From: Candidatus Omnitrophota bacterium
GTDB taxonomy: Bacteria; Omnitrophota; Gorgyraeia; Tantalellales; Tantalellaceae
DNA length: 64,000 nucleotides
Assembly: GCA_016783605.1 (NCBI GenBank)
Contig: JADHWG010000002.1
Span: 107 to 64,106, forward strand
Reading direction: 5' to 3'
Of the stretch, positions 18,937-59,250 are shown one piece after another. Below the pieces are notes generated by a model that did no database searches, was not told the DNA's origin, and worked only from the letters and a program-made list of their open reading frames with translations. A program made the position numbers and the translations under genes. The stretch's first letter is position 1. Every line of letters starts with the position of its first letter.

Positions 18937-19001
18937 CAAACAACCTCGTAGGTTGAACCTCGTAGGTTGAACCTACGAGGTTCAACCTACGAGGTTGTTT
19001 G
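18937..19001. repeat. Nested double hairpin of the CCTCGTAGG/CCTACGAGG motif family (P1)
   Basis: Seen: caaacaacctcgtaggttgaacctcgtaggttgaacctacgaggttcaacctacgaggttgtttg. The same 9-mer palindrome pair closes hairpins at about 1646, 13299, 14452, 14617, 34268, 35970, 36003, 38561, 39995, 40146, 43382, 60493 and 61968. Confidence 0.85.
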
Positions 19002-19045
19002 GCGGGTTGCTCTCCGATTCCATCTTTTTTAAAATCTGCAATAAC

Positions 19046-23232: not shown

Positions 23233-23351
23233 AAAATCAACCTGTAAGGTTGATTTTTTGGGGTGCATATAATATAATTATACGCAATATCGGTGTCGGG
23301 TCGTAGCCGAAAAGAGTTGTTAAAAACCAGAGGATATTAAAAGGGATTAAT

Positions 23352-24806: not shown

Positions 24807-24807
24807 T

Positions 24808-24950
24808 CGCATGTCGTATGTCGCATATCGTATATCGCAAGAAAATCCCCGCCGGAGGCGGGTCCGCCTTCGGCGGAAAAAGTTCTTCACGACATACCAT
24901 ATACGACATACTGTTCTTCGATATACGATATGCGACATACGACATACGAT
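24808..24950. repeat. Palindromic element family P3, copy 4. It is the reverse complement of copy 3, so the pair flanks the DUF212/L,D-transpeptidase cassette as inverted repeats.
   Basis: Seen: cgcatgtcgtatgtcgcatatcgtatatcgcaagaaaatccccgccggaggcgggtccgccttcggcggaaaaagttcttcacgacataccatatacgacatactgttcttcgatatacgatatgcgacatacgacatacgat equals the reverse complement of 23085-23232 with a few mismatches. Confidence 0.85.
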
Positions 24951-24971
24951 AAAAAAGGTGAGACAAAAAAT

Positions 24972-27548: not shown

Positions 27549-27614
27549 GGGGTCGGGGAGTTTTTTTTCGACCCCTCATCCTGAGCCAAGCGAAGGATCT
27601 CTCTTGTAGGTTGG
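27547..27614. repeat. Palindromic element family P4, left-type half copy (gaggggtcgggg...gacccctc hairpin followed by atcctgagccaagcgaaggatctct)
   Basis: Seen in sequence. It begins inside the mlaE stop codon (atgTGAggggtc). Confidence 0.8.
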
Positions 27615-28445: not shown

Positions 28446-28446
28446 T

Positions 28447-28516
28447 GAGGGGTCGGGGTGTTTTTCGACCCCTCATCCTGAAGCCCAAAGGGCTGAAGGA
28501 TCTCTATAGATCCTTT
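28447..28516. repeat. Palindromic element family P4, right-type copy (gaggggtcggggtgtttttcgacccctcatcctgaagcccaaagggctgaaggatctct)
   Basis: Seen in sequence directly after the mlaF stop. It matches the right arm of the intragenic element at 44407-44545. Confidence 0.8.
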
Positions 28517-28571
28517 TTGAAAATTAATCTGTCCTCTACAATTGAAACCAAAGTCTCATCAAGGAGAAAAC

Positions 28572-35986: not shown

Positions 35987-36094
35987 GTGCAATTGAAGAT
36001 ACCACCAACCTCATAGGTTGGTAGTAACCTACGAGGTTGGTGGTGGGTTAAAGGGTGCTTATAGATAGAGGACACGTAAGAAAATGAGGACGAA

Positions 36095-38572: not shown

Positions 38573-38677
38573 GGGCACATTGCATGTGCCCGTAATTGAT
38601 TTTTATGAGTTACGATGCGTTTTTTACCATTCCGATTTCGTTCGGGCACATGCAATGTGCCCCTACGAGGTTGTTAA
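38561..38677. repeat. Compound hairpin with outer P1 arms (aacaacctcgtagg ... cctacgaggttgtt) enclosing two GGGCACATGCAATGTGCCC-type palindromes (38573-38591 and 38644-38663)
   Basis: Seen in sequence immediately after the leuS stop. Confidence 0.85.
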
Positions 38678-43635: not shown

Positions 43636-46600
43636 ATGGGGAAAGAAAAAAGTTTATACATATTTACTGATGTTCGGCTCAAGAAAAGGCGAATCATTCG
43701 GGTTATTGCTTTTTTGGTAGCCTCGCTTTATCTGTTTCAGCAGATCGCGTGGGCACAAGGGGGAGCGCCTCGAGCGTCTTCGATCTCAAGACCTGTTTCC
43801 GGAACGGAAGGTGTTTCCCGCGGGGAATTGCCGAAAGTTCCTTATAAATTCGGAAAGACGCATGAATTTTCGGTGAATACGAACGAGACCGGTGAAATTA
43901 TATATCACATTCAGGATTCCCACGCTTCGCTCGGCGCGCAGTATTCGATCGTTGAGCTTCTTGATTCTCTCGCGACTGATTATAACGTGAATCTTATTGC
44001 TCTTGAAGGCGCCGAAGGATATATCGATACTTCCGTTCTCCAATCGTTTCCCGATAAAGAAATTAGGCGAGACGCGGCAGACCGCCTCATGAAAAAGGGA
44101 CTTATGGGCGCGGCTGAATTTTTTACCGTAACGCGGGATGAAAAAGAGATCGATCTTTATGGAATAGAAGACGAAGAGTTATACAGGAAAAACGTTAACG
44201 AATTCCGCGAAGTTGTTGAAGAGCGTTCCGTAAAAATCGCGAATATCGACGCGTTTCTCACGCAACTAAAACTTCTGGAAAAAGAAATTTGTTCGGAACG
44301 CCTTTTGCGTTTAAACCGCTATTCTTTTCTGCATAGAAATTGCGAATTAAGTTTTTCAAATTACCGGAAGGAGCTTTTGGAGTTTACGGATCGCTTTAAA
44401 ATAGATGAGGGGTCGGGGAATTTTTCTCCGAACCCTCATCCTGAGCAAGGCGAAGGATCTCTGGTTAATTTTTCAAAAGGGTCTATAGAGATCCTTCAGC
44501 CCTTTGGACTTCAGGATGAGGAGTCGGGAAACTCCCCGACCCCTCAAATAGATACCGGTAAATATTCGGAACTCGCAAAACTTACTGAAGCGATCAGCCT
44601 TGAAAAAAGTATAGATTTTCAAAAGGCCAATACCGAGCGGCGCGCGCTTATTGACAAACTAAGCGAGCTTTTAGATAAAGCGGCGCTTAAAGAACTTGTT
44701 ATTAAGTCCGTTGATTTTCAGCAAAACATGATATCCCCGTCGGAGTTTCATGAATATCTTGTGGGGATGTCTAAAAGCCGCAAAATCCCGCCGGAAACCT
44801 ATCCCAATCTCAATATGTTCGCGCGTTATATTTCCGTTTATGAAAAGGTTAATCTGTTTTATCTCACAAAAGAATGCGAATTTTTGGAAAAGGAGATCCG
44901 AGAGAAGCTTTATCGGAACGAAGACGAAAGAAAGCTTGTTGAAATTACGCAAATGACGCGTATGCTCCGGCGTTTATATAGCATGGAACTTACCCCCGGC
45001 GATCACAGTTTTATAAAAACGGAACGCGCGAGGCGATCCGCGGAAGAGTTTACTTTGTTTATAAAAGAGGCGTGCAAAAAATACGGCGTTATCTTTGAAG
45101 AAGGATACGATATCCCGGAAATGTTTGCCGGCATAGAACCGGCTATGACGTTTTATGAAACGGCAGAGAAGAGAAACCAGCATATACTCAAGAATACCGT
45201 TACGCGGATGAAGAAAAGCGGCGCGCGCGCCGCCGCGCTTGTCACGGGCGGATATCATACGGAAGGCCTTACAAAAATAATGAAAGAGAAAAAACTTTCA
45301 TACCTTGTCATCGCCCCCAAATTTGAAAGCGGCGAAGAACGTCCGTATATCGCGGTCTTGACCGGCAAGAAGAAACCTTACCAGAAACTTCTAAAAACCG
45401 GAAAATATCAGCTTGCGATGGAACCCTTCTTTTATCGATCGAATATGGAAGAGATGAAAGAAGACCTTTTTTACGCGCTTGGTCGAGTGGTGCTGAAAGG
45501 CGAGGATCTAAAAAAAGTTAAAGACGCGCTATACAACAATCACAAAATAGAATATGAAAAAAGAATTTCTCAAAAAGAAAAAGAAACAAAGTTTGACGTG
45601 ATCACGCCAACTGAACTCAAAGCCTTTTTGGACAATATACACGTTATAAGAAGCGGCACGAGCGCTGTTATCGGAGACAAAACGGATAAAAATTCAATTA
45701 TTGTACTCGCGCGAAAAAATAGTGTTTACAATTTCAAAACGGCGACGCCCTCGCAAAAGAGAAAGTTACTGAACCGCATCTCCGAAGGCAAAATGCCGGA
45801 AGAAATGGAGGGAATAGGAACTAATATAACCGATTTTGTTCATGACCGAAGCCAAATTCTAACAAAACTCGATAAGTCCACTCCCGCGATTGTTCAGAAG
45901 ATACTGGCAAACCTTACCGAAGGAAAAATAGACGAAAATGAGATTAAGGAACAAGCAGTAATCCTTTTAAAACGTAAAGGAATGCCTTCCGATTGGCAAA
46001 GCGATATCGGTCTCAAAAAGAGGGTAAACAGGGTGATAGCTTTGGTGCGCCAGGGTTTTGCCGCAAAAAAGACTGAAAAAGAAAAGAAAAAGTTCGGCGA
46101 GTGGAAAAAAGCTATAGATGTTGAAAAATATTGGGAAAATTTAAAAAACGTTCTTGGTGAAGTACCGGAAGAGGTGTTGGTTAACGGGATCGATTTTGAA
46201 TTCGCGAATTTTGTTGATCATATGTGGAGCTTTATCCAACAAATAATTGACAGTGAAAAATTTAAACGCGAAATAATTCAATGCTATAACCAAAAAAATG
46301 CTGACGCTGACAAAAACTACCAAGATATAATACAAAGACTGAAATCTCTCCGTTCGCAAATATTTTCTAATCAAACTTTTAATATATTGGGTGATGATGT
46401 TTCTCCAGAAATCCGCAAACACTGGAATTACATATTAAGCGAATATGTCGGGTGCCGGTGGTTTTCGGATATTACCGAAAAGCATGCCGAAATTTTCGAG
46501 GATACTCTCCACGAAAAAATTACATCTCAAAACAAATCGGAAATTGAGAAATATACGAAGCATTTTAGAAAAAACTTGCCCTTCAAAAGTAAAAAGAAGG

Positions 46601-49600
46601 TCCCCCTTCGCATCTTCATGAAATATCTGTATATCAAAATTTTAGAAGCCACAAAGTACTGGGAAAACGAAGTAGATGTTTATATAGAGTCAAAAGAGGA
46701 AACCTGTAATAACGGTGTAAAATATTTTATAAACAACATTGATATGAAAAATCTGGAAAAAGATCGTGTGAAAAAGGGAGAGAAAGACATTTGTGTCGTA
46801 TTAAAAGAAATGATGGATATACTTCTCGTGGGGAATTTGTATAGTGATTTTGCCAATCCAACGAAAGAAAAAAAGCGCGAAAAATATCCGGTTGATGATT
46901 CAGCAGAAACCTTAGATCATTTTTTCAAACTGAGAGAACAAACAAGGCGTGGAAAAGATACGGAACTGCACGTGCTTCACGATAATGTGGGGCTTGAACT
47001 GGTATCAATCTTTCATCTTATAGATTTTTGTATAAAAAATGAAATTGTGAAAAAAGTGGTGCTTCATACAAAAAATTATCCATATGCTATTTCAGATGTT
47101 GTGGGAGAAAAAGATATAAGGATGCAAATTAACGCGCTTCAAAACGCGTCAGAACTTTCAGATATAGCATTTGAGAAAACCGGAAATATTAAATATATGG
47201 AACAACTTTCAGACGATATTACTGGGCATCTAAAAAATCAAAATATTGTAATTGCTAAACCTCATTGGTTTCCGACACTCGGTCAAAACTTTCTGGACAT
47301 TCCTGAAGACTATTATAACGAACTTAAAAAAGCAGATCTTATTTTGGCAATGGGCGATGGCTGGTATAGCAAACTCTTTCTTACCCGCAACTGGAAGTAT
47401 ACAGCAGACGCAAAAGAAATCTTAAGCTATATGCCCGCTCCTACCGTCATCTTTCGTATAGGCAAAAACCCCATAATCGCGGGATTAACAGCCAAAATGG
47501 CCGAATATCTAAAAAAGATCGGCAAATGGTGGAAACCGCCAAGATTCGGCATGATACATTTCGCGCGAGGAGGGAAATACGCGCGTAAAAAAGCTTATAA
47601 CGAATACGAAACACATGAGGAGGCCATTGACGAACAGCTTGAGATCGCTTATGCCGAAGGCAGATTTAAGGCGGTAAGCGACGAAATCGTAGCGCCCGTC
47701 GCAGAATTTTTCAAAACGTCAGGTTATGAAAAAATATCGAAGAAACTAACTAAAGATCCAAACACAGCTACGCGCCAGATAGCGATTAACGAGGTTACCG
47801 GCATAGAGGATTTTAGGGGACACGCGAGTTGGCGGGGTATACACATAAGCGCGGAACTTGATGATGAAGAAAAACAAAAAGTGCTCGTTCACGAGGTCGG
47901 TGCATATTATCGACTTACGCATGGACTTAACCTGGATTTAGAAGCGTTATATTTGGACTATCTTAAGAAGAAAGAAATAGACAAAAAAACCGCACGCGAA
48001 AAATTTAAAAAACTGAAAGAGATGAAAGAGCTTCCTGAAGGTTTTTCGCCTGAGAGGGATTATTCTGGTGAGCCTCTTCGCGTTATTGAGGGTAACGCGA
48101 AAAAAGCAACTTTCTTTCATATTATTGGGCGAAAAATAAAGAGAATTGTTTTTCGTGTTATCGGACGGAAAGAAAAGACGTGTTCACTTTACGTTATTGA
48201 AGGGAAGGCAAAAATGGAAAGAGATCCCGGATATTTTCCTTCGGAAAATTCCGGGATGACAAGTGTTGAGTTGTCGAGAAATTCCAGGATGACAAAAGAG
48301 CGAACTTCACAAAATTCCGGCCAACGCGCTGTCATCCCGGTCGAAGAGCCGGGATCTATTTTTAGAAACTATAAAAAATTATTTAAACTCCTTTCGATTT
48401 TTACTTTTATATTAGGATTGATTATCGTACCTGCGATAAAATTGACTCATTTTATGACGCCATCTAAGAACGCGCCGCCTTTTGAATACAGAATTAAAGA
48501 ATCTGTAAAACCTGTAACAGATTTTCTTGTAAAAGGGCTCAGCGCGCACGGGCCCACGGATATCATAAAAATTGAACCGCAAGGGACTTTTTCCATTGAA
48601 CACGGCGTTGAAATAACAGCGTATAACGCACTTTATGATGTGCCGTCAAATGCGTTTGTTTCGGATTATTACCTTATGTTTGTCTTTAAAGAGGGGGTTT
48701 CTCCGGGAACGCGTCTGCAAATTTTTCTTAAGAATCGAGAATGGAAGAACCTATACGCATATCCGGGTTCGCCTACCGGAGGCAAAGTTATATTTCGTCC
48801 GGGAATAGATCCCTGCAACGTATGTCAATTTAAACCGGAAGAGACGCCATATGGTGATATCTCCGCTATCGGAGTTAAGGTTTGGGACGGCTCATCGGGT
48901 AACGCGCTTAGCAACTTAAAAAAAGTTTATGTAGTCAAAAATGGTATTAAACCGGAAGATGTGCTTAGGGAGAAAAAAACGCCTCTATCACAAGAGAAAA
49001 AAGAATCTCAAAAAACACCGGTGCCGCAATTTGTAAAAACACCGCAAGAAAAACTGCCCGCACCACCGGTGGCGATACCGCAGGAGAAATCGAAGAAACA
49101 AAAATCATCTGATCCTGACGCGATAGTGGTTCCTTTAGACATTCCGGGCACATGGTACGGTCAGAAATGGCCTGACAGCCAGGCGATATCCAATGTGCGT
49201 TATGACCCAAAAAGAAAAGCTTTGGTAGGAGATTTTAATATCATACAGGGCCATCCGAATCTGGATAGAGGGGAAGTAATAGTTGATGTGCTTGACCTCG
49301 GGATATCCCCTTTCAATTTTGATAAATGGGAACTTACAGCTGATGTTAAAGTTGACGTAAAAGAAGGCAGTTTCGGACATACGCCGAATAATGCTGATGG
49401 CGTGGGATTTTTTGTAAAAACCGGACCCGCGCAAGGCTGGAAGAATGCCTATGAATGGGAAAATCATCCGGAAAACGAGGTCGGCGATTGGAAAACAATA
49501 TCGTTTAGCCGCGGAGAATTTAATAAGATAGACAGAGTTGATCCTCAGGACGGGTTCCCTCTAAAAGATCCGATAATCAGGATGTTTGGGATTAAACTGG

Positions 49601-52600
49601 GAGCGGGAAAAGATCATACAGGATCTAAATTTACAAAAGCGAAGGGCAAAATTTTAGTTCGAAACGTGCGTATCACGCCTCGAAGAGAAAAATATGCTCC
49701 GCCCGATTTCTGGCCAAAGGCGCCGAGCGCGCGCAAAAAAGTTTCGGGTGAAATAAAAATCCCTATTACAACAAACTGGCCGGTTAGGGAAGACGCGGGA
49801 AACTGGGCGGTTAAAGCGACGCACGTCAAGGGCGGTATTCTTGCTCTTACCGTGAAACTTCGCGGAGGGGACCCTGAAGGAAACCATAATAAAGGCGAAA
49901 CCTATCTTCCTCTATATGATAAGCGAGGCAAACGTGTCGTTCCTGTCCCGGGATTGCCTGAGGAAGGATATTTTGATGCTCGAGGCAAAGTTATTAAATC
50001 CATGGTTTGGGTTCCAAAAAGCTATGCCGAGGGCAAAAAGATCCCAAGTGCCATACAAACCGGAGCACACGATAAGCATTATAACTACCAGAACAACGCG
50101 TGGAATCCGTCACTTATAACTAAAAACCTCACTGGAAAATGGCATGAATTAAAATTTTATCCTATGGATCCGGCAGAAAACGAACCCGGATACACTGATG
50201 ATGATTTTTTGGTCGTTGCTTTTGGCGAACTTTTATTTAAAACAGGCCTTCCCGGCGCCACTTCACCTGATTACAAATGGGACGGACATATTTACTTTAC
50301 GGATATCCGCATTGAGACTGATGACCGTGTGTTCCCTGAACCCGTGCCGCCATTAATAAAAACGAAAATGTACGCTGAAAATCCAAAAGATAAACCGCCT
50401 GTTCCCATAGAGCTCTTTGAAATGCTTTCCGGCGCCGGCGGTTACGGTATTTTTGACTTTGATCATATTCCGGAGGGGCGAGCCGCGCTGGAGGAAAAAA
50501 TCAAAAAAATGCCTCCAAATGCCCGCGTTTGGCGCCATATGGCGCTTTTCGGAAGTCTTTCGCCGAACGGACCCATTTTGTTCGATGAGAATGATAATTT
50601 TATTGATTTTGGTTTCATTGATCCTGTAACAGGAAAAACGGTGATCATAGGCGTAGAAGGCATGAAAAAATGTGTAGACGAGAGACTTTCTATACTAAAG
50701 CAATATGGCAAAGTAGAGATTACGTCTCTTGTAGCGCATGATGCCGCGGACGGAAAAAAGAAAAAAGAAAACCGTATAGAAGGAGATCGGCCGAATCTTT
50801 TTACGGACTCAAAAAAATTCAAAAGATTTTTACAGGGCATTAAACCCATATTAGAACATATTCGTGACAAATGGAGGGCTCCGGTGCCGGATTCGGCAGG
50901 GCTTGATCTCATACAGCACAATTTTAATAATCCTAAAACTGTTGTCGCTATGTTGGAACTCTTTAACGAGCCGCTCAATATGGATACCGCGCAGGTTCCT
51001 GTGCCGTGTATTCAGAGGAGAATTCACGAATTATTTGAACTCGTCTATGAAATTGATCCTACATGGCTTCTTTCAACCGGAATGAGAGATTACGAGTCCT
51101 GGAAATATTTCGCGCACTTTGTGCTTCCCGAATATTATGACGGCATTAAAAATGTAAAAAATCCATTTTATAAAAATGTTGTACCGCAGTCTCACTGGTA
51201 CGGTGATAAAGAGAGTGTAACACCTCTTGCAACCAACGTGGGAAAATTCTTTATGCCGGAACACGTACTTTTCTGGCTAAAAGGAGAACTTGACCCGCGT
51301 ACGCCTGAAGAATATAAAGCCGCGATAGGCATAGTTGAGGTTATGCGGCAAGTTTATGTTTCAGCCTATGGCGGCGGTCTATTCTGGGTTGACGACGAAT
51401 TTTTGCCGAATTGGAAAGATTACCAGAAATTTTTTAAGGACAACACCGCGCAAGTTCCTTTTACTCCGCCCACCCCCGCTAAACCCGTACAGGTTGTAAT
51501 AACACAGGAAGTGCTCAAAACACTTCCTAACACGATAAAGGCAATCAAAGAGGGGAGTTTAACTTATCGGGACGTGACTATTTTCGCCCAAAGCGAATAC
51601 CCGATCACATTCAAAATGCTGACAGAAAAAGATGTAAATATCAAACTGACAAGAATCGGTCTTAGAACCGACATAATAGAAGCTCTTACGGGACTCGCGG
51701 AGTCGGTAATTCTGAGGGGCTATCCTCTAAATTATGAAACCATCTCCCGCGCGTTTAAAGAAATAATCACGCTCCATGCCGCGAAAGAACTAATGCCGCA
51801 TGCTAAGATGCTTCAGGAGAATGGCATAGCGGTTACGCATAAAAATCTAAGCCGTGTGCTTAAAAAAACATCCCCCTCTCTTATCCCGAAATGCGCTGAA
51901 AAAGCACCCCCCTCTGTCATCCCGGAATTTGCCGAAGGCGAATATCCGGGATCTTGTACCCACAAAAAACTAATCATGTCTTTAGCGGCCATGTTAACCA
52001 TGGCTCCGGTTGTTGCTAGTGCCAATTGGGGAAATATTGTGATGGAATCAGGCATATTTACGACCGTTATGAATTTTTGTTTTTTTGCTGTGCCTATTTT
52101 AGTTTTTTCCGCGGTTATGGTCGGCATATGTTTGACCGCGCAGAAGGTTTTAATTGATCCTTTGGCGAATGTTTTAGATCCCGGCTCTTCCCCCGCATCA
52201 AGTGCGGGGTTCGGCCGGGATGACAAAAAAGAGGAAGGCTCCGACTGGAATAACACATCTGGACACTTCACAAAAAAGGTAAAAATCGCGGGCAGGGCGC
52301 TTCCGGGGGTAGTTGTGGTTTTATTGTTAATCGCTGTCGGCGTAATTTACTGGATGCAAAAAACTACTCCGCCGGAATTTGTTCCTGAAAAACCGGTTTA
52401 TGAAGATGTTATTGATACAAAAGAAGAGAAACTGGAGATAGAGGAGCCGCGTCAGAAGAAATTTTCTAAAAAGCTGAAAGCAAACTCGCCTCGAGATGGA
52501 CCTGAAGACGCTGAAAAGCGTGAAAGGGAAGATACTTTAGAAAAAGAGCGCGCGGAGTTTGATAAAATATTTGGTATGTCTAAAGTGATTACTCATGCTG

Positions 52601-55600
52601 ATGGCTCGTATAAAATTGCGTATTATCCACCGGGTGCGGTTGTTTCTTCTGAAATATATTTTTATTCTGCAGACAAAACGCTCAATAAGATCAGCTATTT
52701 CGATCCCAATACAGGTATTCCTTCTTGCGACGCCTATCTGGACCCCAACGGTACGGAAATTAGCAGAGACTATTTTGATCCGAATATTCAGGATTTAACC
52801 AAAACAGTTTATCTAAGCCCCGACGGGAAAGAAACTTTTATCGTACGCAATCGTTATTCATCGCATTTATCTCAAATGGATCCGAATGGGGGCACAACGG
52901 AATATTATTTTGGCAGGAAGAGTAGTTTTTTCCCGAGTTCATTTGATATCTATGACACTTCAGGAGACAGGGCAACTCTTTTGATGCTTGATACGAATAG
53001 CTGGAGTTTGAAAGAACGAACTGATAGGGGGACGACAGAAGATGGTATTTCATATGAAACTATTACGGATTTACAAACTAATACGACAGCTTATCGCGAA
53101 TACTGGTCCGGGACGCTTATACAAATGTACTGGGAATCTCGGGATAGCGAAGGAAATGTTGGTGGACGGATATTTTACGATAAAAAAGGCATGTCGGTAG
53201 AGACACGAGACGCGAAAGATCGTGTAACGTTGTTAAAAAAAGAGGATCGGATTACCGAGACCAAATATTATCCCGGTAAACATGTGAATCAAATGGAGAG
53301 TGCTCACACAGAATATCTTGTTCCGAGAAACGGGATTTGTTCTGAAGCCATTTGGATGAATAGAGACGGTTCAAAAGATGCTCAGCAGTTTGATTATGAA
53401 GACAAAACATCGATGTGGAGAGAATTTAATAAAGATGATTCGTATGAAGAGACATATTTTGATGAAGAAGGGAAACAGTCAGAAGTTATCTATTATGACT
53501 CAAACAACAATGTTATCCAGCCGGCGGAGGAAGATGAAGAAGGCATAGAAATGGGTAGAGACGTCAGCCACCTAAAGAGAAATGTCACTCATTTAACGAC
53601 TCTCAGCCTAATCGCGTTTGCCGCCAGAGAATTAATCTTACCGGCTGTGTCTGAAGCTTACGGTGGAGGTTTTATAACCCGCGCGGTGATGACTGGTTTT
53701 GAAAATCCGGTTATTTCGGTTTTGATTCTTATGGCTCTTATCGGACTTGAGTTTTTTGTATACAAACTAAGGGTAAAAGCACTTAGTAAAAGAGCAGGAG
53801 ATTTTTACGCGCGCTCACGTGCTCGGACAGAATGGCTGATCGCGGCAGTTTTAACCATTTTTGTTTTTGGAACGGTTTTTCTTGTAAAAAATATTAAGCA
53901 CAAAGAACCGGCGCAAAACGTACAAAAAACTGAAGATATTCAAATTAAAAAGTCGGAAGAAGAAATTTCCGTTGATGTTAACGCGATCATTCGTCGTGTG
54001 AAAAAAAGAAGATACGGAACATATGGAAGACCGGAACCTTCTTCGCTTAAAAACATTCAATTGCCTGAAGCGATGCGGGAATTTGAGGGCTTGAGATTTC
54101 TTTATGAAAGTTCGGATGGCAAAACAGAGTTTTATGAGTCTCCGTATGAAAAGTTTGAGAAAATTAGTTTTCGATATAATCCAAACGATACTCTTATGCA
54201 GATTTCGGGTTTTGACGCGGAAGGAAACGATTATACAATTTATCGATCTTGGCCGAGGGGAAATAGTACTATTTACTCGCACACAGATGATTTGAAAAAA
54301 GATATGATCTTTAACTATGATTCGAATGGGAAATTAACTGATCAGACTAAGTATAATGATGACGGAGAATGTGATTGGAGAGACAATCAGGAAAACGGCA
54401 TATGGTACCACCATACATATGAGTATGGCCCGGACGGTTGGCTTAAAAAAGAAACTAAATTGGATGCTTTCGGGATCACCCCGCTAAAGGAGTGGGAGTA
54501 TGAGCCTGGAACTTATCTTCTGTTGCGGGAGACCAATTCCGATAAATCTTTTATAGAATATGACTACTCATATGACGACCCTGACGATCCGGAGGGATAT
54601 GAATGGAAGCAATTCGGGTGGCATTACGATCCCAATGGAGGGCTTGTTAAGACAGTCGAATATGATAGAGAGGGGAATATTGTTGATATTATCGATCCTG
54701 ACGGTAATCCCGCGCAAATGGTGGTGAACCCGACGGATGGTTCGTATTATTTTTATGCTATGGAGTATGGTGATAGAGCAGAATACCATTATTCTTCAAA
54801 GAATGAGTTTTTTAAAGAAGTAAGATATGATGGATCCCGAATATCGCGAATTATTGAACGCGTGTCTCCTAACGAAAAAAAGGATACACATATTTGGAAA
54901 GATAACACGTATAGCACCTATTATTCGGAAATCAATGAAGACGGGGATTTTATAAAAACCAATCGTGTGGAATATTTTAATTCCGAAGGATGGTCTATAA
55001 AAAAATATAACTACGAAACTAAAGAATGTAGTAAATTTGAATATCCGCCAAACGAAGCATATTTTATTGAGAAGTGCTATAGAGGCGAGAATTTCGAAAC
55101 ATTTATTGAAATTGTTCGTCATCCGTATCCCCAGAGTAAAAAATCAAGCGCTTATGACTCGAGCACAATGAATTTTTTAGCAAAAAAGGTTTTCTCGCCA
55201 ACCGGAGCAGGTTCCGCCGCGGCAGGGGCAATTTTGCTTTTTCCCGCCATCGCGAATGCTATAGGCAAAGTTTCGGGTTCGGCCGGTGTTCTGCCTGTAT
55301 CGACGGTTTTATTGCGTTTTTTAAGCCATCCCTTGAGTGCTGGAATTTTTGGGGCTGTGTTTGGAGTTATTGCATATCTGGCAATTGATTGGACTGCCGA
55401 GAAAATTCAAGAAGCGTCTGCGTCTTCAATAGGTTTTCCGGGAGAGATAAAGCTTACACGGTCAAGTTTTGTTAAGGGAGCTATTGGCGGTGTTCTTTTG
55501 TTTTTATGGTGGTTGTCTAATCCTTTTAGAGCATTTGGTTCAGATAAATCTGATCCATTTTTGAAAATATTTAAGTTGAATTCAGACGAAAAGGAGATAA

Positions 55601-58600
55601 AAGAATTTGATGTACAAAAGTATTCGGGAGCTTTTATTTATAGCGCAATGGTATTTTCTGAAAAAGGAGAGCTGATTGGAAAATTTCCTACTTTTCTCAT
55701 TAATAGAATTTTGGATAAGGAGACACATAATATCGTGGGATATTCATATATAGGGAAAGCAGGTATTTTCAATAAAGCAGGGCGTAAAATTGGAGCCATT
55801 ACACCGGACAGGGATATACAAAATATAGAAGGAAAAATTATCGGAAAAGTTGATGATTATCATAAAGGAGATTTGAAAAATAAAAGGGGAAAGATTGTTG
55901 CCATTCGCAGGGAGAGCGGCTGTGTCATGCTGGATATAAATGGGACGAATTACTTATTAAAACACGAAGATTTCTATTCTGAAAGAAAAGAAATGGTTAG
56001 CAAGTTTTTTAAGAATCTTTCGGTTGACGCGCAAAAAAAGATAATATCCGTTCTTGAATTATCAAAAGGGAGAGAACTTTCTTTGTTTATCAGAGATGTT
56101 GTTCTTACTTTAAGGGAATGGCATCTGCGAGAACATAATCCTATGGGGATAGGTGAACTGAGACAACTTATCAAAGCAGATGAACGGTCCAGTGCGATAT
56201 TAGTAAAATTCGTTTTATCCAATGAACTTTTCAGGGATCTGTTTGATGTAAGTTTTAATGAGCTTGTCAGTCGCGCACAAAAAACTAACAAATCATTCGC
56301 AGAATTTTTGCGAGTAGATGCTGGATTAAAAGATAATGATGTAGTTAAATTTTCGGGGATTTTAGCTTTATTCGGCGGATTAGAAAAGGCTGTTAAAGTT
56401 TATCCAAAATATCTTACGGGTGTAGTGCCTAAACTCTTTGAATCAGTAAAACAGTTAAAGAGAGAAGCATATTTTACAGAAAGGTTATATGAAAAAGTTC
56501 TGGCAGATAAATTTTTACATAAGACGGATTTTGAAAATGCACTTATAAACCTATATAAGTCTTTAGACCCCAAAAGTGTTAAAAGAGATCTGATCGAAAT
56601 AACTTCCAGCCTTTTAGGAGATAACCTTAGCGCGAACACAAAAAAAGAATTAAATTTAAAATCAATCGACACTTCTGCATATAAAAAGGTGCCATTGGAT
56701 AGTGTTGTTCACAATGATACCCTGGTTGTTAAAAACTATTTTTATGACAAAAGATGGTATGACTATTTGCTAAAAGTTTTGCCTGCCTTTGGATATCCTG
56801 AAGGAGGAATAAAAATAGAAAATAACGCGTTTCTTGCAACTCAAAGAATTAACGGAATTATGGTTAAGTTTATAGGAATCTTAAATTCCACAGAAGAAGA
56901 AAAGGGCGACCCGTTTTCTGAGTTAAAAGCTGGTATTCTTGTTCACAGAGGACATCAGGGAAAAGAAACACGAACGACCTTCAACGGCAGAGAAGCGCAA
57001 GTACCGTTACTTTTGCCGTTAGGTTGTCGGAGCGCGGGAGACGCGGATTGGCTTATCGCAGGGAAATATCCTGAAGCCGTAATGTGGGGAACCGGTGGAA
57101 CCGGGGAGGGTCTCAAAAACACGCCGTTTGTATTTCATCTGGTAAAAGCCATATGTAAAAAGGAATATACTACGTGGAAACAAGCTTATTCATATTTGGA
57201 ACAAAGACTTGGTAAAGGTGTTGCGAGAAACTATATGAGACCTGACAGTCTTACATTTATTCTTATCAAGGAGCTTAAAAAACGATACCCCGATGCTGTA
57301 AAAAATTATAATTTCCAGCTCTCAGAAACAACCCCCGCTCGCGCCGGACCTCGTCAATACGGCGATATCTTCGCGCCCAACATTACAAGAAGAGAAATGT
57401 TGCGCGGTAGTTTCCGCCTGCCGATAATCGGCATAATTCTTTCCGGCATTAGAAACAGGGATAAATCGACCGAGGATTCCCCGAGAAAAAACGATGAAAA
57501 AGAAAAAAGGAATGTTGAGAATAAAACGGAGCCTTTCGGGAAGAGACCGTTAAATATCAACCCAACGTTTATTGCACTGTTATTATTCGGTTTGTCAGTC
57601 TGGCTTTTGGGAGCGGAACGAAATCTTAGCAATATTAGTTGGCTGGCTATGGGTGCGCTATGCGGATGTCTTATTCTTTTTTTGGGAAAGCTCTATTCAG
57701 AAAAAGTGACTGCAGGGATAATAGTCTTTTTAAAAAATAACGGAGTATCAGTACCGACCATCTATAAATTGTGGAAGGTATCGAAGAATACACTACCTTT
57801 CGTGATGGCAATTATGTTTGTTATGACAGGCTGGTTTATGTGCAAAAAAATGTCTCCCGAGTATGCCAGTATGCGTATAGTAAGCGCCGTTGCTTTAAGC
57901 ATATTAAGCGGGTGTTTTTTGTTGGAAAAACAAACGGAAGAAGCTATGTTGCGACGAATGGACAAAATAGTAGTGGCAGGTCTCAATTTAATGATAAGAG
58001 TGTTCAGTTTGGTGATAATAGAGGGGTATAATTCAGCGGTGACAATTATTAATTCACTCAATGAAAAAATAATGGAGTTTAGAAATGGTGTTCGTAAAAA
58101 TGATAAATCCGATTTTACGATTACGCTTGGCGTTTCGTCTGAGATCTATAAGAAACTTATCTCGAAAGACGCTATTTCCGAATTGTACAAAAGGGGAATT
58201 AATCGCGTGGTAAGCTTAGACAAATTCGGTGCGAGAGAAGAGATGATGCGTGAGCTTAGTGAGAAAACAAAAGGTGAAAAGGTTATCTGTCTGCTTTTGG
58301 ATGAAACCACGTTCGGGCAGTTGGATCTAAAAGATTCGCAGGGTAATATGAAAATGAAAAAATTTATGAACACGGTTGATCTATTTGTCGAAAGGGCTCA
58401 AAAAGATATTTTTCCCTTGATGCATCCGGAACTTACGCGAATCAATGCCGAAACAGTAAAAAAGATCAATGACGCCGCTAAACTTAGGGGTTTTCTTGAC
58501 ATGCACGCGAGAACTTTGCGGGAAGTGGAATCTCTTGAACTTGTGGACAAAAGTATTTATGACGAACGGTTGGCAGATCTTCAATCCGTGCTTTTTTCGA

Positions 58601-59250
58601 AAGTAAAAATGTCAAATAAAGCGAAACTGTTTGTGGAAAATATAGCTATAGGGAGGTGCAGTAAGAGGGAAACTAAATATATCAGCGTGTCCGCCGCGAC
58701 TGCCGCGGATATGAGGTTTATTGCCGGCGCTTTGGATAAAATGGGGCTTGACAAACAAAAGGCTTCGAAGTTCATACAGGTTCGTGTTTGTAACAAAAAT
58801 GTGACCGGTAAAAATCTGGATAAATATTTGAAAAGGACAGGACTCGGCGCGTATTTGGCGAGAGAAAACGTCAAAGTGGTTTCATCCGCGAATGAACTCG
58901 AACTCGAGAAGACGATGGATGTAGTAAAACAGACGTTTGGCAATGAGATTAATCCGGGACACGTATTTATCGGAGATTCGAGAGACATAGTGCAAGCGGA
59001 TAGAGATTCCTTGAAGCAAAAGAACGCGCCCGTATATGTTCAGATGCGCCGAGAAGGCACCGCGTCACAGCTTCTGCGCGCTATGATAGAACTTGCCGCT
59101 ACGGGGGAGAAGAGAAAGATAAAGATAAAAGGTCTTGGAATTATATTGCGGAAGGACGGATATTATGTCTTTCTGCCGGATATTAAACCGGTAATTAATC
59201 TATTGCGGGAAGAGATCGAAAACTATGAAACAATTTGTTCGATGGTGTAA
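43636..59250 (+). CDS. Giant multi-domain membrane protein, 5204 aa (paralog 2): N-terminal anchor, conserved N-module interrupted by an in-frame palindromic element, lectin/CBM-like beta-sandwich, possible glycosidase-like region, extended YD/MORN-like repeat region, scattered multi-TM segments, conserved C-module
   Basis: Single uninterrupted track ORF. The N-terminus LFQQIAWAQGG, the IYHIQDSHASLGAQYSIVELLDSLATDYNVNLIALEGAEG region and ALVTGGYHTEGLTKIMKEKKLSYLVIAPKF are homologous to the ORF at 1746. The C-terminal about 430 aa (KYISVSAATAADMRFIAGALDKMGLDKQKASKFIQVRV ... VYVQMRREGTASQLL) are homologous to the C-terminus of the ORF at 1746. YD-like repeats (FNYDSNGKLTDQTKYNDDGE, VEYDREGNIVDIIDPDGN) lie at about nt 52560-55140. 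Confidence 0.85.
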   Translation: MGKEKSLYIFTDVRLKKRRIIRVIAFLVASLYLFQQIAWAQGGAPRASSISRPVSGTEGVSRGELPKVPYKFGKTHEFSVNTNETGEIIYHIQDSHASLGAQYSIVELLDSLATDYNVNLIALEGAEGYIDTSVLQSFPDKEIRRDAADRLMKKGLMGAAEFFTVTRDEKEIDLYGIEDEELYRKNVNEFREVVEERSVKIANIDAFLTQLKLLEKEICSERLLRLNRYSFLHRNCELSFSNYRKELLEFTDRFKIDEGSGNFSPNPHPEQGEGSLVNFSKGSIEILQPFGLQDEESGNSPTPQIDTGKYSELAKLTEAISLEKSIDFQKANTERRALIDKLSELLDKAALKELVIKSVDFQQNMISPSEFHEYLVGMSKSRKIPPETYPNLNMFARYISVYEKVNLFYLTKECEFLEKEIREKLYRNEDERKLVEITQMTRMLRRLYSMELTPGDHSFIKTERARRSAEEFTLFIKEACKKYGVIFEEGYDIPEMFAGIEPAMTFYETAEKRNQHILKNTVTRMKKSGARAAALVTGGYHTEGLTKIMKEKKLSYLVIAPKFESGEERPYIAVLTGKKKPYQKLLKTGKYQLAMEPFFYRSNMEEMKEDLFYALGRVVLKGEDLKKVKDALYNNHKIEYEKRISQKEKETKFDVITPTELKAFLDNIHVIRSGTSAVIGDKTDKNSIIVLARKNSVYNFKTATPSQKRKLLNRISEGKMPEEMEGIGTNITDFVHDRSQILTKLDKSTPAIVQKILANLTEGKIDENEIKEQAVILLKRKGMPSDWQSDIGLKKRVNRVIALVRQGFAAKKTEKEKKKFGEWKKAIDVEKYWENLKNVLGEVPEEVLVNGIDFEFANFVDHMWSFIQQIIDSEKFKREIIQCYNQKNADADKNYQDIIQRLKSLRSQIFSNQTFNILGDDVSPEIRKHWNYILSEYVGCRWFSDITEKHAEIFEDTLHEKITSQNKSEIEKYTKHFRKNLPFKSKKKVPLRIFMKYLYIKILEATKYWENEVDVYIESKEETCNNGVKYFINNIDMKNLEKDRVKKGEKDICVVLKEMMDILLVGNLYSDFANPTKEKKREKYPVDDSAETLDHFFKLREQTRRGKDTELHVLHDNVGLELVSIFHLIDFCIKNEIVKKVVLHTKNYPYAISDVVGEKDIRMQINALQNASELSDIAFEKTGNIKYMEQLSDDITGHLKNQNIVIAKPHWFPTLGQNFLDIPEDYYNELKKADLILAMGDGWYSKLFLTRNWKYTADAKEILSYMPAPTVIFRIGKNPIIAGLTAKMAEYLKKIGKWWKPPRFGMIHFARGGKYARKKAYNEYETHEEAIDEQLEIAYAEGRFKAVSDEIVAPVAEFFKTSGYEKISKKLTKDPNTATRQIAINEVTGIEDFRGHASWRGIHISAELDDEEKQKVLVHEVGAYYRLTHGLNLDLEALYLDYLKKKEIDKKTAREKFKKLKEMKELPEGFSPERDYSGEPLRVIEGNAKKATFFHIIGRKIKRIVFRVIGRKEKTCSLYVIEGKAKMERDPGYFPSENSGMTSVELSRNSRMTKERTSQNSGQRAVIPVEEPGSIFRNYKKLFKLLSIFTFILGLIIVPAIKLTHFMTPSKNAPPFEYRIKESVKPVTDFLVKGLSAHGPTDIIKIEPQGTFSIEHGVEITAYNALYDVPSNAFVSDYYLMFVFKEGVSPGTRLQIFLKNREWKNLYAYPGSPTGGKVIFRPGIDPCNVCQFKPEETPYGDISAIGVKVWDGSSGNALSNLKKVYVVKNGIKPEDVLREKKTPLSQEKKESQKTPVPQFVKTPQEKLPAPPVAIPQEKSKKQKSSDPDAIVVPLDIPGTWYGQKWPDSQAISNVRYDPKRKALVGDFNIIQGHPNLDRGEVIVDVLDLGISPFNFDKWELTADVKVDVKEGSFGHTPNNADGVGFFVKTGPAQGWKNAYEWENHPENEVGDWKTISFSRGEFNKIDRVDPQDGFPLKDPIIRMFGIKLGAGKDHTGSKFTKAKGKILVRNVRITPRREKYAPPDFWPKAPSARKKVSGEIKIPITTNWPVREDAGNWAVKATHVKGGILALTVKLRGGDPEGNHNKGETYLPLYDKRGKRVVPVPGLPEEGYFDARGKVIKSMVWVPKSYAEGKKIPSAIQTGAHDKHYNYQNNAWNPSLITKNLTGKWHELKFYPMDPAENEPGYTDDDFLVVAFGELLFKTGLPGATSPDYKWDGHIYFTDIRIETDDRVFPEPVPPLIKTKMYAENPKDKPPVPIELFEMLSGAGGYGIFDFDHIPEGRAALEEKIKKMPPNARVWRHMALFGSLSPNGPILFDENDNFIDFGFIDPVTGKTVIIGVEGMKKCVDERLSILKQYGKVEITSLVAHDAADGKKKKENRIEGDRPNLFTDSKKFKRFLQGIKPILEHIRDKWRAPVPDSAGLDLIQHNFNNPKTVVAMLELFNEPLNMDTAQVPVPCIQRRIHELFELVYEIDPTWLLSTGMRDYESWKYFAHFVLPEYYDGIKNVKNPFYKNVVPQSHWYGDKESVTPLATNVGKFFMPEHVLFWLKGELDPRTPEEYKAAIGIVEVMRQVYVSAYGGGLFWVDDEFLPNWKDYQKFFKDNTAQVPFTPPTPAKPVQVVITQEVLKTLPNTIKAIKEGSLTYRDVTIFAQSEYPITFKMLTEKDVNIKLTRIGLRTDIIEALTGLAESVILRGYPLNYETISRAFKEIITLHAAKELMPHAKMLQENGIAVTHKNLSRVLKKTSPSLIPKCAEKAPPSVIPEFAEGEYPGSCTHKKLIMSLAAMLTMAPVVASANWGNIVMESGIFTTVMNFCFFAVPILVFSAVMVGICLTAQKVLIDPLANVLDPGSSPASSAGFGRDDKKEEGSDWNNTSGHFTKKVKIAGRALPGVVVVLLLIAVGVIYWMQKTTPPEFVPEKPVYEDVIDTKEEKLEIEEPRQKKFSKKLKANSPRDGPEDAEKREREDTLEKERAEFDKIFGMSKVITHADGSYKIAYYPPGAVVSSEIYFYSADKTLNKISYFDPNTGIPSCDAYLDPNGTEISRDYFDPNIQDLTKTVYLSPDGKETFIVRNRYSSHLSQMDPNGGTTEYYFGRKSSFFPSSFDIYDTSGDRATLLMLDTNSWSLKERTDRGTTEDGISYETITDLQTNTTAYREYWSGTLIQMYWESRDSEGNVGGRIFYDKKGMSVETRDAKDRVTLLKKEDRITETKYYPGKHVNQMESAHTEYLVPRNGICSEAIWMNRDGSKDAQQFDYEDKTSMWREFNKDDSYEETYFDEEGKQSEVIYYDSNNNVIQPAEEDEEGIEMGRDVSHLKRNVTHLTTLSLIAFAARELILPAVSEAYGGGFITRAVMTGFENPVISVLILMALIGLEFFVYKLRVKALSKRAGDFYARSRARTEWLIAAVLTIFVFGTVFLVKNIKHKEPAQNVQKTEDIQIKKSEEEISVDVNAIIRRVKKRRYGTYGRPEPSSLKNIQLPEAMREFEGLRFLYESSDGKTEFYESPYEKFEKISFRYNPNDTLMQISGFDAEGNDYTIYRSWPRGNSTIYSHTDDLKKDMIFNYDSNGKLTDQTKYNDDGECDWRDNQENGIWYHHTYEYGPDGWLKKETKLDAFGITPLKEWEYEPGTYLLLRETNSDKSFIEYDYSYDDPDDPEGYEWKQFGWHYDPNGGLVKTVEYDREGNIVDIIDPDGNPAQMVVNPTDGSYYFYAMEYGDRAEYHYSSKNEFFKEVRYDGSRISRIIERVSPNEKKDTHIWKDNTYSTYYSEINEDGDFIKTNRVEYFNSEGWSIKKYNYETKECSKFEYPPNEAYFIEKCYRGENFETFIEIVRHPYPQSKKSSAYDSSTMNFLAKKVFSPTGAGSAAAGAILLFPAIANAIGKVSGSAGVLPVSTVLLRFLSHPLSAGIFGAVFGVIAYLAIDWTAEKIQEASASSIGFPGEIKLTRSSFVKGAIGGVLLFLWWLSNPFRAFGSDKSDPFLKIFKLNSDEKEIKEFDVQKYSGAFIYSAMVFSEKGELIGKFPTFLINRILDKETHNIVGYSYIGKAGIFNKAGRKIGAITPDRDIQNIEGKIIGKVDDYHKGDLKNKRGKIVAIRRESGCVMLDINGTNYLLKHEDFYSERKEMVSKFFKNLSVDAQKKIISVLELSKGRELSLFIRDVVLTLREWHLREHNPMGIGELRQLIKADERSSAILVKFVLSNELFRDLFDVSFNELVSRAQKTNKSFAEFLRVDAGLKDNDVVKFSGILALFGGLEKAVKVYPKYLTGVVPKLFESVKQLKREAYFTERLYEKVLADKFLHKTDFENALINLYKSLDPKSVKRDLIEITSSLLGDNLSANTKKELNLKSIDTSAYKKVPLDSVVHNDTLVVKNYFYDKRWYDYLLKVLPAFGYPEGGIKIENNAFLATQRINGIMVKFIGILNSTEEEKGDPFSELKAGILVHRGHQGKETRTTFNGREAQVPLLLPLGCRSAGDADWLIAGKYPEAVMWGTGGTGEGLKNTPFVFHLVKAICKKEYTTWKQAYSYLEQRLGKGVARNYMRPDSLTFILIKELKKRYPDAVKNYNFQLSETTPARAGPRQYGDIFAPNITRREMLRGSFRLPIIGIILSGIRNRDKSTEDSPRKNDEKEKRNVENKTEPFGKRPLNINPTFIALLLFGLSVWLLGAERNLSNISWLAMGALCGCLILFLGKLYSEKVTAGIIVFLKNNGVSVPTIYKLWKVSKNTLPFVMAIMFVMTGWFMCKKMSPEYASMRIVSAVALSILSGCFLLEKQTEEAMLRRMDKIVVAGLNLMIRVFSLVIIEGYNSAVTIINSLNEKIMEFRNGVRKNDKSDFTITLGVSSEIYKKLISKDAISELYKRGINRVVSLDKFGAREEMMRELSEKTKGEKVICLLLDETTFGQLDLKDSQGNMKMKKFMNTVDLFVERAQKDIFPLMHPELTRINAETVKKINDAAKLRGFLDMHARTLREVESLELVDKSIYDERLADLQSVLFSKVKMSNKAKLFVENIAIGRCSKRETKYISVSAATAADMRFIAGALDKMGLDKQKASKFIQVRVCNKNVTGKNLDKYLKRTGLGAYLARENVKVVSSANELELEKTMDVVKQTFGNEINPGHVFIGDSRDIVQADRDSLKQKNAPVYVQMRREGTASQLLRAMIELAATGEKRKIKIKGLGIILRKDGYYVFLPDIKPVINLLREEIENYETICSMV
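44407..44545 (+). repeat. Complete P4-family palindromic element (139 nt) inserted in frame within giant gene 2
   Basis: Seen: gaggggtcggggaatttttctccgaaccctcatcctgagcaaggcgaaggatctct ... agagatccttcagccctttggacttcaggatgaggagtcgggaaactccccgacccctc. The arms match the intergenic half-copies at 27547 and 28447. It is translated as EGSGNFSPNPHPEQGEGSLVNFSKGSIEILQPFGLQDEESGNSPTPQ and coincides with an indel of about 46 aa relative to paralog 1. Confidence 0.8.
48233..48357 (+). repeat. Imperfect palindromic segment inside giant gene 2 that resembles the intergenic P2 family (gatcccgg...ccgggatgacaag ... ctgtcatcccgg...ccgggatc)
   Basis: Seen in sequence. Related short segments occur at 51893-51960 (tgtcatcccggaatttgccgaaggcgaatatccgggatc) and at 52190-52230. 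Confidence 0.5.

Follow-up and report, generated by a model that had tools for sequence, protein, structure and literature searches.

A 139-nt MITE inserted in frame into a giant gene of an Omnitrophota bacterium, with an 8-bp target-site duplication and relatives in other genomes

The Rickettsia palindromic elements (RPEs; Ogata et al. 2000 Science 290:347) are portrayed in a 2024 review (PMC10969869) as palindromic sequences of approx. 100–150 bp that occur both between and within genes. According to that review, intragenic copies are read through in frame and add tens of residues to the gene product, their open frame encodes a recurring peptide, and their insertions are thought to occupy sites at which the protein fold is tolerant; in some RPE families nearly half of the copies are intragenic (PMC10969869). 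The review also names several bacterial MITEs with in-frame intragenic copies, i.e. ERIC together with further small mobile sequences from enterobacteria (Delihas 2007; in PMC10969869), QMITE1 of Coxiella burnetii (PMC5896051), as well as MITEb and MITEe from Anabaena PCC 7120. A different group of palindromes, the REPs, carry a tag, GTAG or CGTC, where the palindrome ends and are associated with RAYT transposases (PMC3733652).

The element analyzed in this study lies within a 64,000-nt stretch of DNA from a Candidatus Omnitrophota bacterium (hereafter the window; all positions refer to it and are forward-strand coordinates). It would be analogous to the RPEs rather than a member of any RPE family, and the analogy, which holds at the level of the family, is one of behaviour: the family is likewise palindromic, inter- and intragenic, read in frame, and linked to a recurring peptide. 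It differs from the RPEs in its hosts (Omnitrophota and other uncultured environmental bacteria), in having terminal inverted repeats that are clearly recognisable, together with 8-bp duplications of the target, and in the low frequency of intragenic in-frame copies (approx. 5 of approx. 80, compared with nearly half in some RPE families; PMC10969869). With ERIC, QMITE1, MITEb and MITEe it shares small size, lack of autonomy, inverted repeats, duplications, a mostly intergenic location and occasional in-frame fusions, but it represents another sequence family in other hosts. Its resemblance to REPs, BIMEs and REPINs lies in the occurrence of hairpin singlets and inverted doublets, with the singlets placed in short intercistronic gaps just past stop codons; in contrast to those elements, the full doublets carry 8-bp duplications and lack the GTAG/CGTC tag, and no RAYT gene was found nearby among the ten window ORFs scanned. 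The likeness to the Correia elements of Neisseria concerns MITEs of approx. 100–150 bp that form long RNA hairpins, are often located at gene ends and are co-transcribed; however, Correia elements duplicate a TA dinucleotide, compared with 8 bp in the present case, and they are not known outside Neisseria.

In-frame insertion of palindromes has been recorded before, in Rickettsia as well as in other bacteria, and it is the element family that appears to be undescribed. A literature search with strings of the element sequence returned unrelated aptamer papers only, and we found no description in the literature of the A-N-T-T-A-A-N-T target, the multiple-of-3 length bias or the modular hairpin ends of this family. 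The earlier note on this DNA had correctly placed the event among those of the established RPE-like kind, but had implied that such events are rare; the review describes in-frame MITE fusions as 'not unusual' (PMC10969869), and the phenomenon is therefore less rare than was suggested.

The element is a 139-nt imperfect palindrome (44407–44545) located within the 5204-codon ORF of the recipient, giant gene 2 (43636–59250), where the host frame reads it as EGSGNFSPNPHPEQGEGSLVNFSKGSIEILQPFGLQDEESGNSPTP(Q). The coordinates, reading frame and peptide given in the earlier note are correct, as is the identification of a palindrome, but its arms, described there as perfect, are not: perfect complementarity is confined to the terminal 12 nt (GAGGGGTCGGGG / CCCCGACCCCTC). 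The inverted repeats are nested, with an outer pair (44406–44423 with 44529–44546; 18 nt, 94% complementary), a middle pair (44428–44444 with 44511–44527; 17 nt, 88%) and an inner pair (44452–44462 with 44487–44497; 11 nt, 100%). The predicted single-strand fold has an energy of −85.2 kcal/mol, compared with −48.3 ± 4.0 for shuffled sequences (z −9.25; matched by 0 of 200 shuffles), and the GC content of the hairpin is 52%, versus approx. 40% in the surrounding region. One of the six frames of the element is stop-free, namely the one in use by the host gene. For giant gene 2, the chance prior of an in-frame outcome is 1 in 6. Scanning of the whole window at the Rfam gathering threshold revealed two tRNAs and nothing else; a permissive match of the element to a plant miRNA precursor (35 bits, versus a gathering score of 90) was rejected as that of a generic long hairpin.

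The left terminal module of the element (44407–44437) heads all family copies, and its terminal inverted repeat GAGGGGTCGGGGAATTT itself forms part of a local hairpin (GAGGGGTCGG..CCGAACCCTC). It is followed by the left inner module ATCCTGAGCAAGGCGAAGGATCTCT (44438–44462), which belongs to the 'TCATCC - small hairpin - GGATC' type and has conserved counterparts in other genomes. The central AT-rich loop GGTTAATTTTTCAAAAGGGTCTAT (44463–44486) is common to the unit found beside mlaF (see below) and to the loci L110 and L091. On the other side of the loop, the right inner module AGAGATCCTTCAGCCCTTTGGACTTCAGGAT (44487–44517) encodes EILQPFGLQD, and its pattern was found at 51 metagenome loci, while the right terminal module GAGGAGTCGGGAAACTCCCCGACCCCTC (44518–44545) bears the right terminal inverted repeat. 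These repeats are approx. 17 nt long (GAGGGGTCGGGGAnTTT), and their consensus, GAGSSSTCGGGGAGTTT, is present at both ends across the family copies. The element starts with GAGGGGTC.. and finishes with ..GACCCCTC, with neither a GTAG nor a CGTC tag. Several of its motifs were over-represented: GAGGGGTCGGGGA gave 8 matches with ≤2 mismatches (1.0 expected), GAAGGATCTCT gave 5 with ≤1 mismatch (0.85 expected), and CCTCATCCTGA gave 4, which is above chance expectation.

An 8-bp direct repeat without mismatches, AAATAGAT, abuts the element at both ends (44399–44406 and 44546–44553), and this flanking duplication is direct mechanistic evidence for insertion. The left copy contributes the host-frame codons ..K-I-D and the identical right copy encodes a second ..I-D, and for this reason the residues 'ID' are found on both sides of the insert. 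The element and the duplication together amount to 139 + 8 = 147 bp, i.e. 49 codons (approximately residues 258–306 of the product), so that the downstream reading frame is kept; the gain of about 46 residues calculated earlier, when the duplication had been missed, has to be corrected to 49. Deletion in silico of the element plus one copy of the duplication would leave the empty-site junction ..TTTAAAATAGAT joined to ACCGG.., and the resulting protein sequence (FKID followed by TGKY..) aligns without gaps to that of the paralog (FGIE followed by TGTL..).

The paralog, giant gene 1 (1746–12503; 3585 aa), is in the empty-site state. A BLASTP comparison of the two N-terminal modules (46% identity, 568 columns) placed 49 gap positions, split 36 + 13, at the insert, which bears out the paralog indel proposed in the earlier note. 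Exactly these 49 residues were also absent, at the same position, from all 13 Omnitrophota database homologs. Moreover, two assemblies from other samples (L075, 49x, and L076, 27x) matched the window at 100% identity along 15.3 kb and 10.9 kb, respectively, with the element and both junctions included, and the same 5204-aa product was called in the two other assemblies. A single study is, however, the source of all three assemblies, and their contig names suggest that one assembler probably produced them. The segment is an insertion that belongs to a repeat family, bears a target-site duplication and leaves the frame intact.

The part of the giant protein that received the insert is, as previously supposed, conserved: it is an N-terminal module of approx. 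560 aa, with an ARMT1-like domain further downstream. A Pfam search of this module returned no family and a Foldseek comparison with the PDB gave nothing significant, the best match being the erythromycin esterase EreC (E = 0.066), which we regard as a hint only. In an AlphaFold2 model, residues 261–307 are predicted as coil with a pLDDT of 22–31, and the flanking helices (240–254 and 311–325) have values of approx. 76–89; the model thus depicts the insert as an unstructured loop. A low pLDDT would be expected here regardless, since none of the aligned homologs has residues at this place, and the suggestion that the insert may be a structurally harmless loop between two helices is therefore weakly supported.

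Two other copies in the window are solo units situated at the ends of mla genes (Pfam records for these genes: MlaE, ABC_tran, MlaD), and their match to the arms of the element, noticed at the outset, was confirmed at approx. 90%. Positions 44406–44462 are 89.5% identical to 27546–27602 over 57 nt, and positions 44465–44546 are 90.2% identical to the reverse complement of 28446–28527 over 82 nt. The first unit (27547–27602) is equivalent to 56 nt at the left end of the element and starts inside the mlaE stop codon, in which TGA (27546–27548) is made up of a flanking T and the first two bases of the element, GA. The second (28447–28527) comprises the right arm and the central loop in reverse orientation, and starts 1 nt past the mlaF stop codon TAA. 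No partner of a target-site duplication was found at either solo unit. The window is rich in other small palindromes, some of them with GTAG.

The element is not unique: besides the three loci in the window, the family has approx. 30 loci in reference genomes and 51 in metagenomes, with unrelated flanks and mostly in intergenic positions, where it occurs as singlets and as inverted doublets. One copy on another contig (L110) is also 139 nt long and approx. 93% identical, but the duplication at its borders, AATTAACT, is another one. Of the distinct, delimited full copies from other genomes and metagenomes, 20 of 20 had perfect 8-bp duplications, and these define a target preference, A-N-T-T-A-A-N-T (n = 20), in which A1 and T8 are present in 20/20 sites, T4 in 18/20 and A5 in 17/20. 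In size (139 nt, with no transposase gene and with host read-through as the sole open frame), terminal inverted repeats, fixed-length duplication and dispersed copies, the element is a MITE. A search for an autonomous partner, i.e. matching ends 400–4000 bp apart with an 8-bp duplication, gave none in the approx. 8-kb flanks around short copies.

Several family copies are, like the one in giant gene 2, located in frame within genes, so that the RPE-like behaviour initially proposed also holds for the family. In the case of SecDF (L017), the inserted copy adds 166 nt + 8 = 174 bp and is read in the same frame (EGSGRFPTPHPE..), and a partial copy (L087) is in frame within the GatB_N domain of GatB. 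L104 and L123 are further in-frame cases, the other recipients being a PMT_2-like membrane protein and a 418-aa ORF; the peptides EGSGxFPTPHPE and EILQPFGLQDE recur among the encoded sequences. Statistics for the family, which are based on approx. 20 partly related copies, revealed that element and duplication add up to a multiple of 3 in 15 of 21 copies and, when copies are clustered at ≥85% identity, in 10 of 13 clusters (binomial p = 0.0016), and that 42 of 120 frames are stop-free, approx. twice the expectation (19.9 ± 4.0 in composition-matched shuffles). The length bias and the shortage of stops may result from selection against gene-destroying copies. A profile search with the element peptide against 5.8 billion proteins, in which 96 candidates were scored, yielded mostly short spurious ORFs and missed the known SecDF case, and is therefore unusable for counting in-frame insertions.

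Other explanations of these observations have to be weighed against insertion of a MITE. Palindromic repeats are classic trouble spots in assembly, and the source of the window is a metagenome assembly, which makes a repeat-induced chimera or a short-read hairpin artefact conceivable; against this, the sequence is identical in the assemblies of the two other samples (27x and 49x), the alignment with the 46%-identical paralog continues past both junctions, and an artefact would not be expected to combine a perfect duplication with an open frame and a length divisible by 3; we therefore consider this explanation hardly credible. The 49 residues might instead be an ancestral coding sequence, lost from the paralog and from the sampled homologs, with the intergenic look-alikes copied from the gene. 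The segment is indeed in frame and stop-free, but it is absent with exact boundaries from the paralog and 13/13 homologs, it is bounded by the 8-bp direct repeat, it forms a GC-rich hairpin (52%) in a region of approx. 40% GC, and near-identical copies with other flanks are present at unrelated, mostly intergenic loci in unrelated organisms. Judged from these sequence comparisons, an ancestral origin has next to no probability and may be regarded as effectively refuted.

A mobile element of another type, the REP/REPIN class, would consist of palindromic doublets moved by a RAYT (an IS200/IS605-like tyrosine transposase) through single-stranded hairpin intermediates, with the singlets as intergenic units. 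The coexistence of doublets and singlets, the hairpin nature of both element ends, the location of singlets in short intra-operon gaps, like E. coli REPs, and the many small palindromes of the window, including those with GTAG, would all fit such an origin. However, REPIN and IS200/IS605-type movement generates no target-site duplication, and all 20 delimited full copies are bordered by perfect 8-bp duplications of a symmetric AT-rich target; in addition, the GTAG/CGTC tag is absent from the element ends and a Y1 transposase from the ten window ORFs scanned (housekeeping genes). We consider this origin highly improbable, and REPIN/RAYT identity was rejected on the presence of the duplications and the absence of the tag. 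A further alternative accepts the insertion and supposes that the loop, or the RNA hairpin within the 15.6-kb mRNA, has since become functional, e.g. by serving as a flexible linker, by being processed by a protease or RNase III, or by making translation pause. The great stability of the hairpin (−85 kcal/mol), the family-wide depletion of stops and bias to multiple-of-3 length, and the persistence of copies within essential genes such as SecDF and GatB are in favour of co-option, but the insert is 90–93% identical to intergenic copies, which is the pattern of a recent passenger and not of an adapted segment, and no structure is predicted for it in the model. Co-option therefore appears very unlikely.

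The reading that we prefer, and hold to be very probably correct, is that a 139-bp MITE was inserted into the 8-bp site AAATAGAT of this Omnitrophota giant gene by the following mechanism. The element, which has no coding capacity of its own, was presumably mobilised by a transposase acting in trans that made staggered cuts 8 bp apart at the target; the inverted repeats and the duplication would be consistent with a DDE-type enzyme. Repair of the gaps would have duplicated the target, adding 139 + 8 = 147 bp. The element would have landed in the sole stop-free combination of orientation and frame out of six, and since there is no stop codon in this frame, translation is predicted to read through. 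The outcome would be a 49-residue insert, predicted to form an unstructured loop that separates two helices in the conserved N-terminal module, and presumably one that the protein tolerates without benefiting from it.

That selfish palindromes can persist in frame inside genes, and so give rise to new protein segments, is recognised, but documented examples are sparse. The present case is a clean one, with an exact duplication and with the empty site represented by a paralog from the window itself as well as by 13 homologs, and it adds a new host lineage, the Omnitrophota, a phylum known for giant genes; we found no mention of such elements in the papers on Omnitrophota giant genes that we consulted. 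The family repeats also give rise to TGA stop codons at their junctions and to spurious short ORFs, and real genes can acquire stop codons or C-termini from them, which is of relevance to annotation. At the family level, the multiple-of-3 lengths, the shortage of stops and the copies in SecDF and GatB suggest that the elements have been filtered or shaped for coding compatibility. We tentatively propose, rating its chances as somewhat poorer than even, that they form a 'coding-compatible' MITE lineage, distributed over Omnitrophota, Planctomycetota and further uncultured bacteria from groundwater and sediment, and moulded in such a way that its entry into genes can be survived; its hallmarks may be an element plus duplication of multiple-of-3 length, several stop-free frames and the symmetric A-N-T-T-A-A-N-T target. 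If this is true, the lineage repeatedly adds loops of 25–60 residues to proteins, including the essential SecDF and GatB as well as giant proteins, and would constitute a second, phylogenetically broad RPE-like system that contributes measurably to the lengthening of proteins in a phylum noted for its giant genes.

The 139-nt element at 44407-44545 (GAGGGGTCGGGGAATTTTTCTCCGAACCCTC ATCCTGAGCAAGGCGAAGGATCTCT GGTTAATTTTTCAAAAGGGTCTAT AGAGATCCTTCAGCCCTTTGGACTTCAGGAT GAGGAGTCGGGAAACTCCCCGACCCCTC) is spanned by three nested pairs of inverted repeats (complementarity 94%, 88% and 100%), and on folding the strand forms a single long hairpin (-85.2 kcal/mol), an energy matched by 0 of 200 shuffles (-48.3 +/- 4.0; z = -9.25). 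The earlier note had described a perfect-armed palindrome, which is correct for the palindrome but slightly overstates its arms, as complementarity is perfect only for the outer 12 nt. As had also been claimed, the element lies within the coding frame of giant gene 2 (5204-codon ORF 43636..59250, + strand), which is translated through it to give the peptide EGSGNFSPNPHPEQGEGSLVNFSKGSIEILQPFGLQDEESGNSPTPQ.

The 8-mer AAATAGAT directly abuts the element on both sides (44399-44406 and 44546-44553). This flanking duplication had been missed, and with it the gain is 139 + 8 = 147 bp, i.e. 49 codons, instead of the proposed ~46 residues. Duplication of the 8-bp target accounts for the residues ID on either side of the insert (..FKID-EGSG...TPQ-ID-TGKY..). 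Since 147 bp keeps the downstream frame in any insertion phase, the deciding factor is the presence of a stop codon in the frame read; only one of the six element frames is stop-free, and it is the one used in giant gene 2. With T as the last base of the target and GA as the first two of the element, a TGA arises in one frame at each left junction of the family. The mlaE stop codon (TGA, 27546-27548) is such a junction codon, composed of the flanking T and the first two bases of a partial copy (solo unit).

A conserved N-terminal module of ~560 aa (43636-45450; paralog 1746-3400) is common to both giant genes (46% identity), and in giant gene 1 the insert corresponds to 49 gap positions, which agrees with the paralog indel noted earlier. 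A protein search with this module returned 14 proteins, every source-named one from Omnitrophota. In an alignment of 13 homologs and the paralog, the 49 insert columns are absent from all but the query and the flanks align gap-free; judged from this alignment, the element is an insertion and not an ancestral segment. A misassembly is contradicted at the contig level by two other samples, whose contigs L075 (ERZ24794672, 49x; 15,290 nt compared) and L076 (ERZ24794671, 27x; 10,902 nt compared) are 100% identical to the window across the element and both junctions.

Invariant motifs of the module include QDxH and a C-terminal GGYHT. A Pfam search with it revealed no family, and Foldseek against the PDB found nothing significant; the top match, erythromycin esterase EreC (E = 0.066, non-significant), is the sole structural hint. 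In an AlphaFold2 model of a 605-residue N-terminal segment (14-sequence alignment; mean pLDDT 67), residues 261-307 form a coil (pLDDT 22-31) between confident helices 240-254 and 311-325. The insert may thus occupy a tolerated surface loop, to which the model lends weak support, because low pLDDT is expected anyway at positions without homolog residues. In the Omnitrophica homolog P0006, a different insert, ASVISAPSVIPAKAGIQDMDSRF, is present in frame elsewhere in the module (alignment columns ~138-158). Its VIPAKAGIQ peptide looks repeat-derived, resembling the GTCATYCC-hairpin type units of the window; if so, this protein family would have received a repeat insertion a second time, independently.

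The element is not unique, as the earlier note had anticipated from the units located on the stop codons of mlaE and mlaF, both of which match at ~90%. Its left part (44406-44462) matches 27546-27602 (mlaE; 89.5% identity) and its right part (44465-44546) the reverse complement of 28446-28527 (mlaF; 90.2%), so that the two units jointly tile the entire element. Neither has a target duplication partner, and we therefore read them as truncated copies. Besides these three window loci, searching a single genome from each species with the pattern GGGGTCGGGGN{8,20}CTCATCCTGA gave 71 loci, of which ~30 are true family members and the rest chance matches in high-GC genomes, and scanning metagenomes for the right-arm core gave 51 further loci, including L110, a 139-nt copy with ~93% identity and a different duplication (AATTAACT). 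The alphaproteobacterial loci L027 and L062 contain longer palindromes with a CTCATCCTGAGG...CGAAGGA core in common.

Among all loci, 20 distinct full copies could be delimited with perfect 8-bp duplications, defining a symmetric, AT-rich target A-N-T-T-A-A-N-T (A at position 1 and T at position 8 in 20/20 copies, T at position 4 in 18/20, A at position 5 in 17/20); the terminal inverted repeats follow the pattern GAGSSSTCGGGGAGTTT. Inverted-repeat ends and fixed 8-bp duplications are the defining features of MITEs, and by these sequence features the element is a MITE. It is a discrete 139-bp unit inserted at an A..T-bounded, AT-rich 8-mer, with the frame preserved and apparently read through. 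Duplications arising from 8-bp staggered cuts usually come from a DDE-type enzyme. The element would have been mobilised in trans by a transposase making such cuts, its insertion probably surviving because it is a multiple of three, stop-free and in a loop. The collected family loci yielded no autonomous partner.

By record title, the ~30 genomic members come from MAGs of Omnitrophota, Planctomycetia/Planctomycetales, Brocadiaceae, Sumerlaeota, 'Pseudomonadota' and Deltaproteobacteria, labels that may be imperfect. Occurrence in several phyla (loci L006-L073 and L080-L130) reflects horizontal spread or, alternatively, errors in binning and labelling.

Further copies are in frame. In Omnitrophica bacterium RIFCSPLOWO2_12_FULL_50_11 (L017), a 784-aa SecDF contains a 166-nt copy that, together with the duplication ACTTAAAT, amounts to 174 bp (58 codons); the same frame is read (EGSGRFPTPHPE..), with HLN on either side. 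In a full-length GatB from Hainich groundwater (L087), a partial copy within the catalytic domain GatB_N encodes EILQPFGLQDEPSG..; other copies lie in a PMT_2-like membrane protein (L104) and a 418-aa ORF (L123), and in L098 and L102 the CbiD C-terminus runs into a family copy. The sum of element length and 8 is a multiple of 3 in 15/21 copies and in 10/13 clusters at >=85% identity (binomial p = 0.0016), and 42/120 frames are stop-free against 19.9 +/- 4.0 in composition-matched shuffles (maximum 31 in 500), values that are suggestive of coding compatibility of the family, the samples being small and the copies related. With these copies and both statistics, the likening to Rickettsia palindromic elements (RPEs) is fair as a family-level analogy, although the intragenic fraction (~5 of ~80 copies) is far lower than that reported for RPEs. 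Many gene-caller 'hypothetical proteins' (P0015-P0030, 48-115 aa) are mere translations of family repeats; P0028 has an integrase-like N-terminus and P0026 is a cysteinyl-tRNA synthetase fragment (PF01406), each running into a repeat copy.

Distinct hairpin repeats are unusually abundant in the intergenic regions of this genome. The window contains 11 instances of the GTCATCC-hairpin-GGATC motif (0.13 expected): seven units are intergenic and four lie in frame within giant gene 2 (48223-48260, -; 48331-48356, +; 51916-51953, +; 52177-52224, -), flanking predicted membrane-spanning stretches and encoding peptides that include SVIPEFAEGEYPGS and DPGSSPASSAGFGRDD. Giant gene 2 may have absorbed several repeat elements. 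A second MITE family (13360-13488, ~559-693 and ~20363-20490; inverted repeats GGGACTGTCGCAAAATACC / GGTATTTTGCGACAGACCC; 5-bp duplication AAGAA at 13355-13359 and 13489-13493) contains the same inner GTCATCC-hairpin-GGATC module as the element, so that different MITE families of this genome have an internal module in common. The 3' end of a Mur-ligase-like ORF (18995..20416; Mur_ligase_M, Mur_ligase_C) lies inside this family (20387-20416), its last ~10 codons and TAA stop falling within TGTCATCCTCGCGAACGCGGGGATCTATAA, a C-terminal fusion with the repeat. GTAG is present in the numerous intergenic palindromes based on CCTCGTAGG / CCTACGAGG (678-724, 13297-13351, 14449-14714, 18932-19006, 36001-36044, 38560-38675), which are possible members of the GTAG-tagged REP super-family of PMC3733652. 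Other palindromic families (23085-23233 and 24803-24953; 1426-1525 and 38560-38675) comprise arrays of the CGTATGTCGCATATCGTATATCG type and palindromes of AAGGGCACGGCATGCCGTGCCCTT / GGGGCACATTGCATGTGCCC.

Rfam holds no family for the element, a literature search found no paper containing its sequence, and neither of two papers on Omnitrophota giant genes, for which the phylum is known, mentions palindromes or MITEs; the family is apparently undescribed. In-frame MITE insertion is itself an established phenomenon; a 2024 review (PMC10969869) describes such fusions as 'not unusual' and places RPEs at the extreme. The original observation is confirmed, and its interpretation is supported with the corrections made here. 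The insertion in giant gene 2 provides a textbook-clean example, and the coding-compatibility signal at the family level is worth testing on complete genomes.
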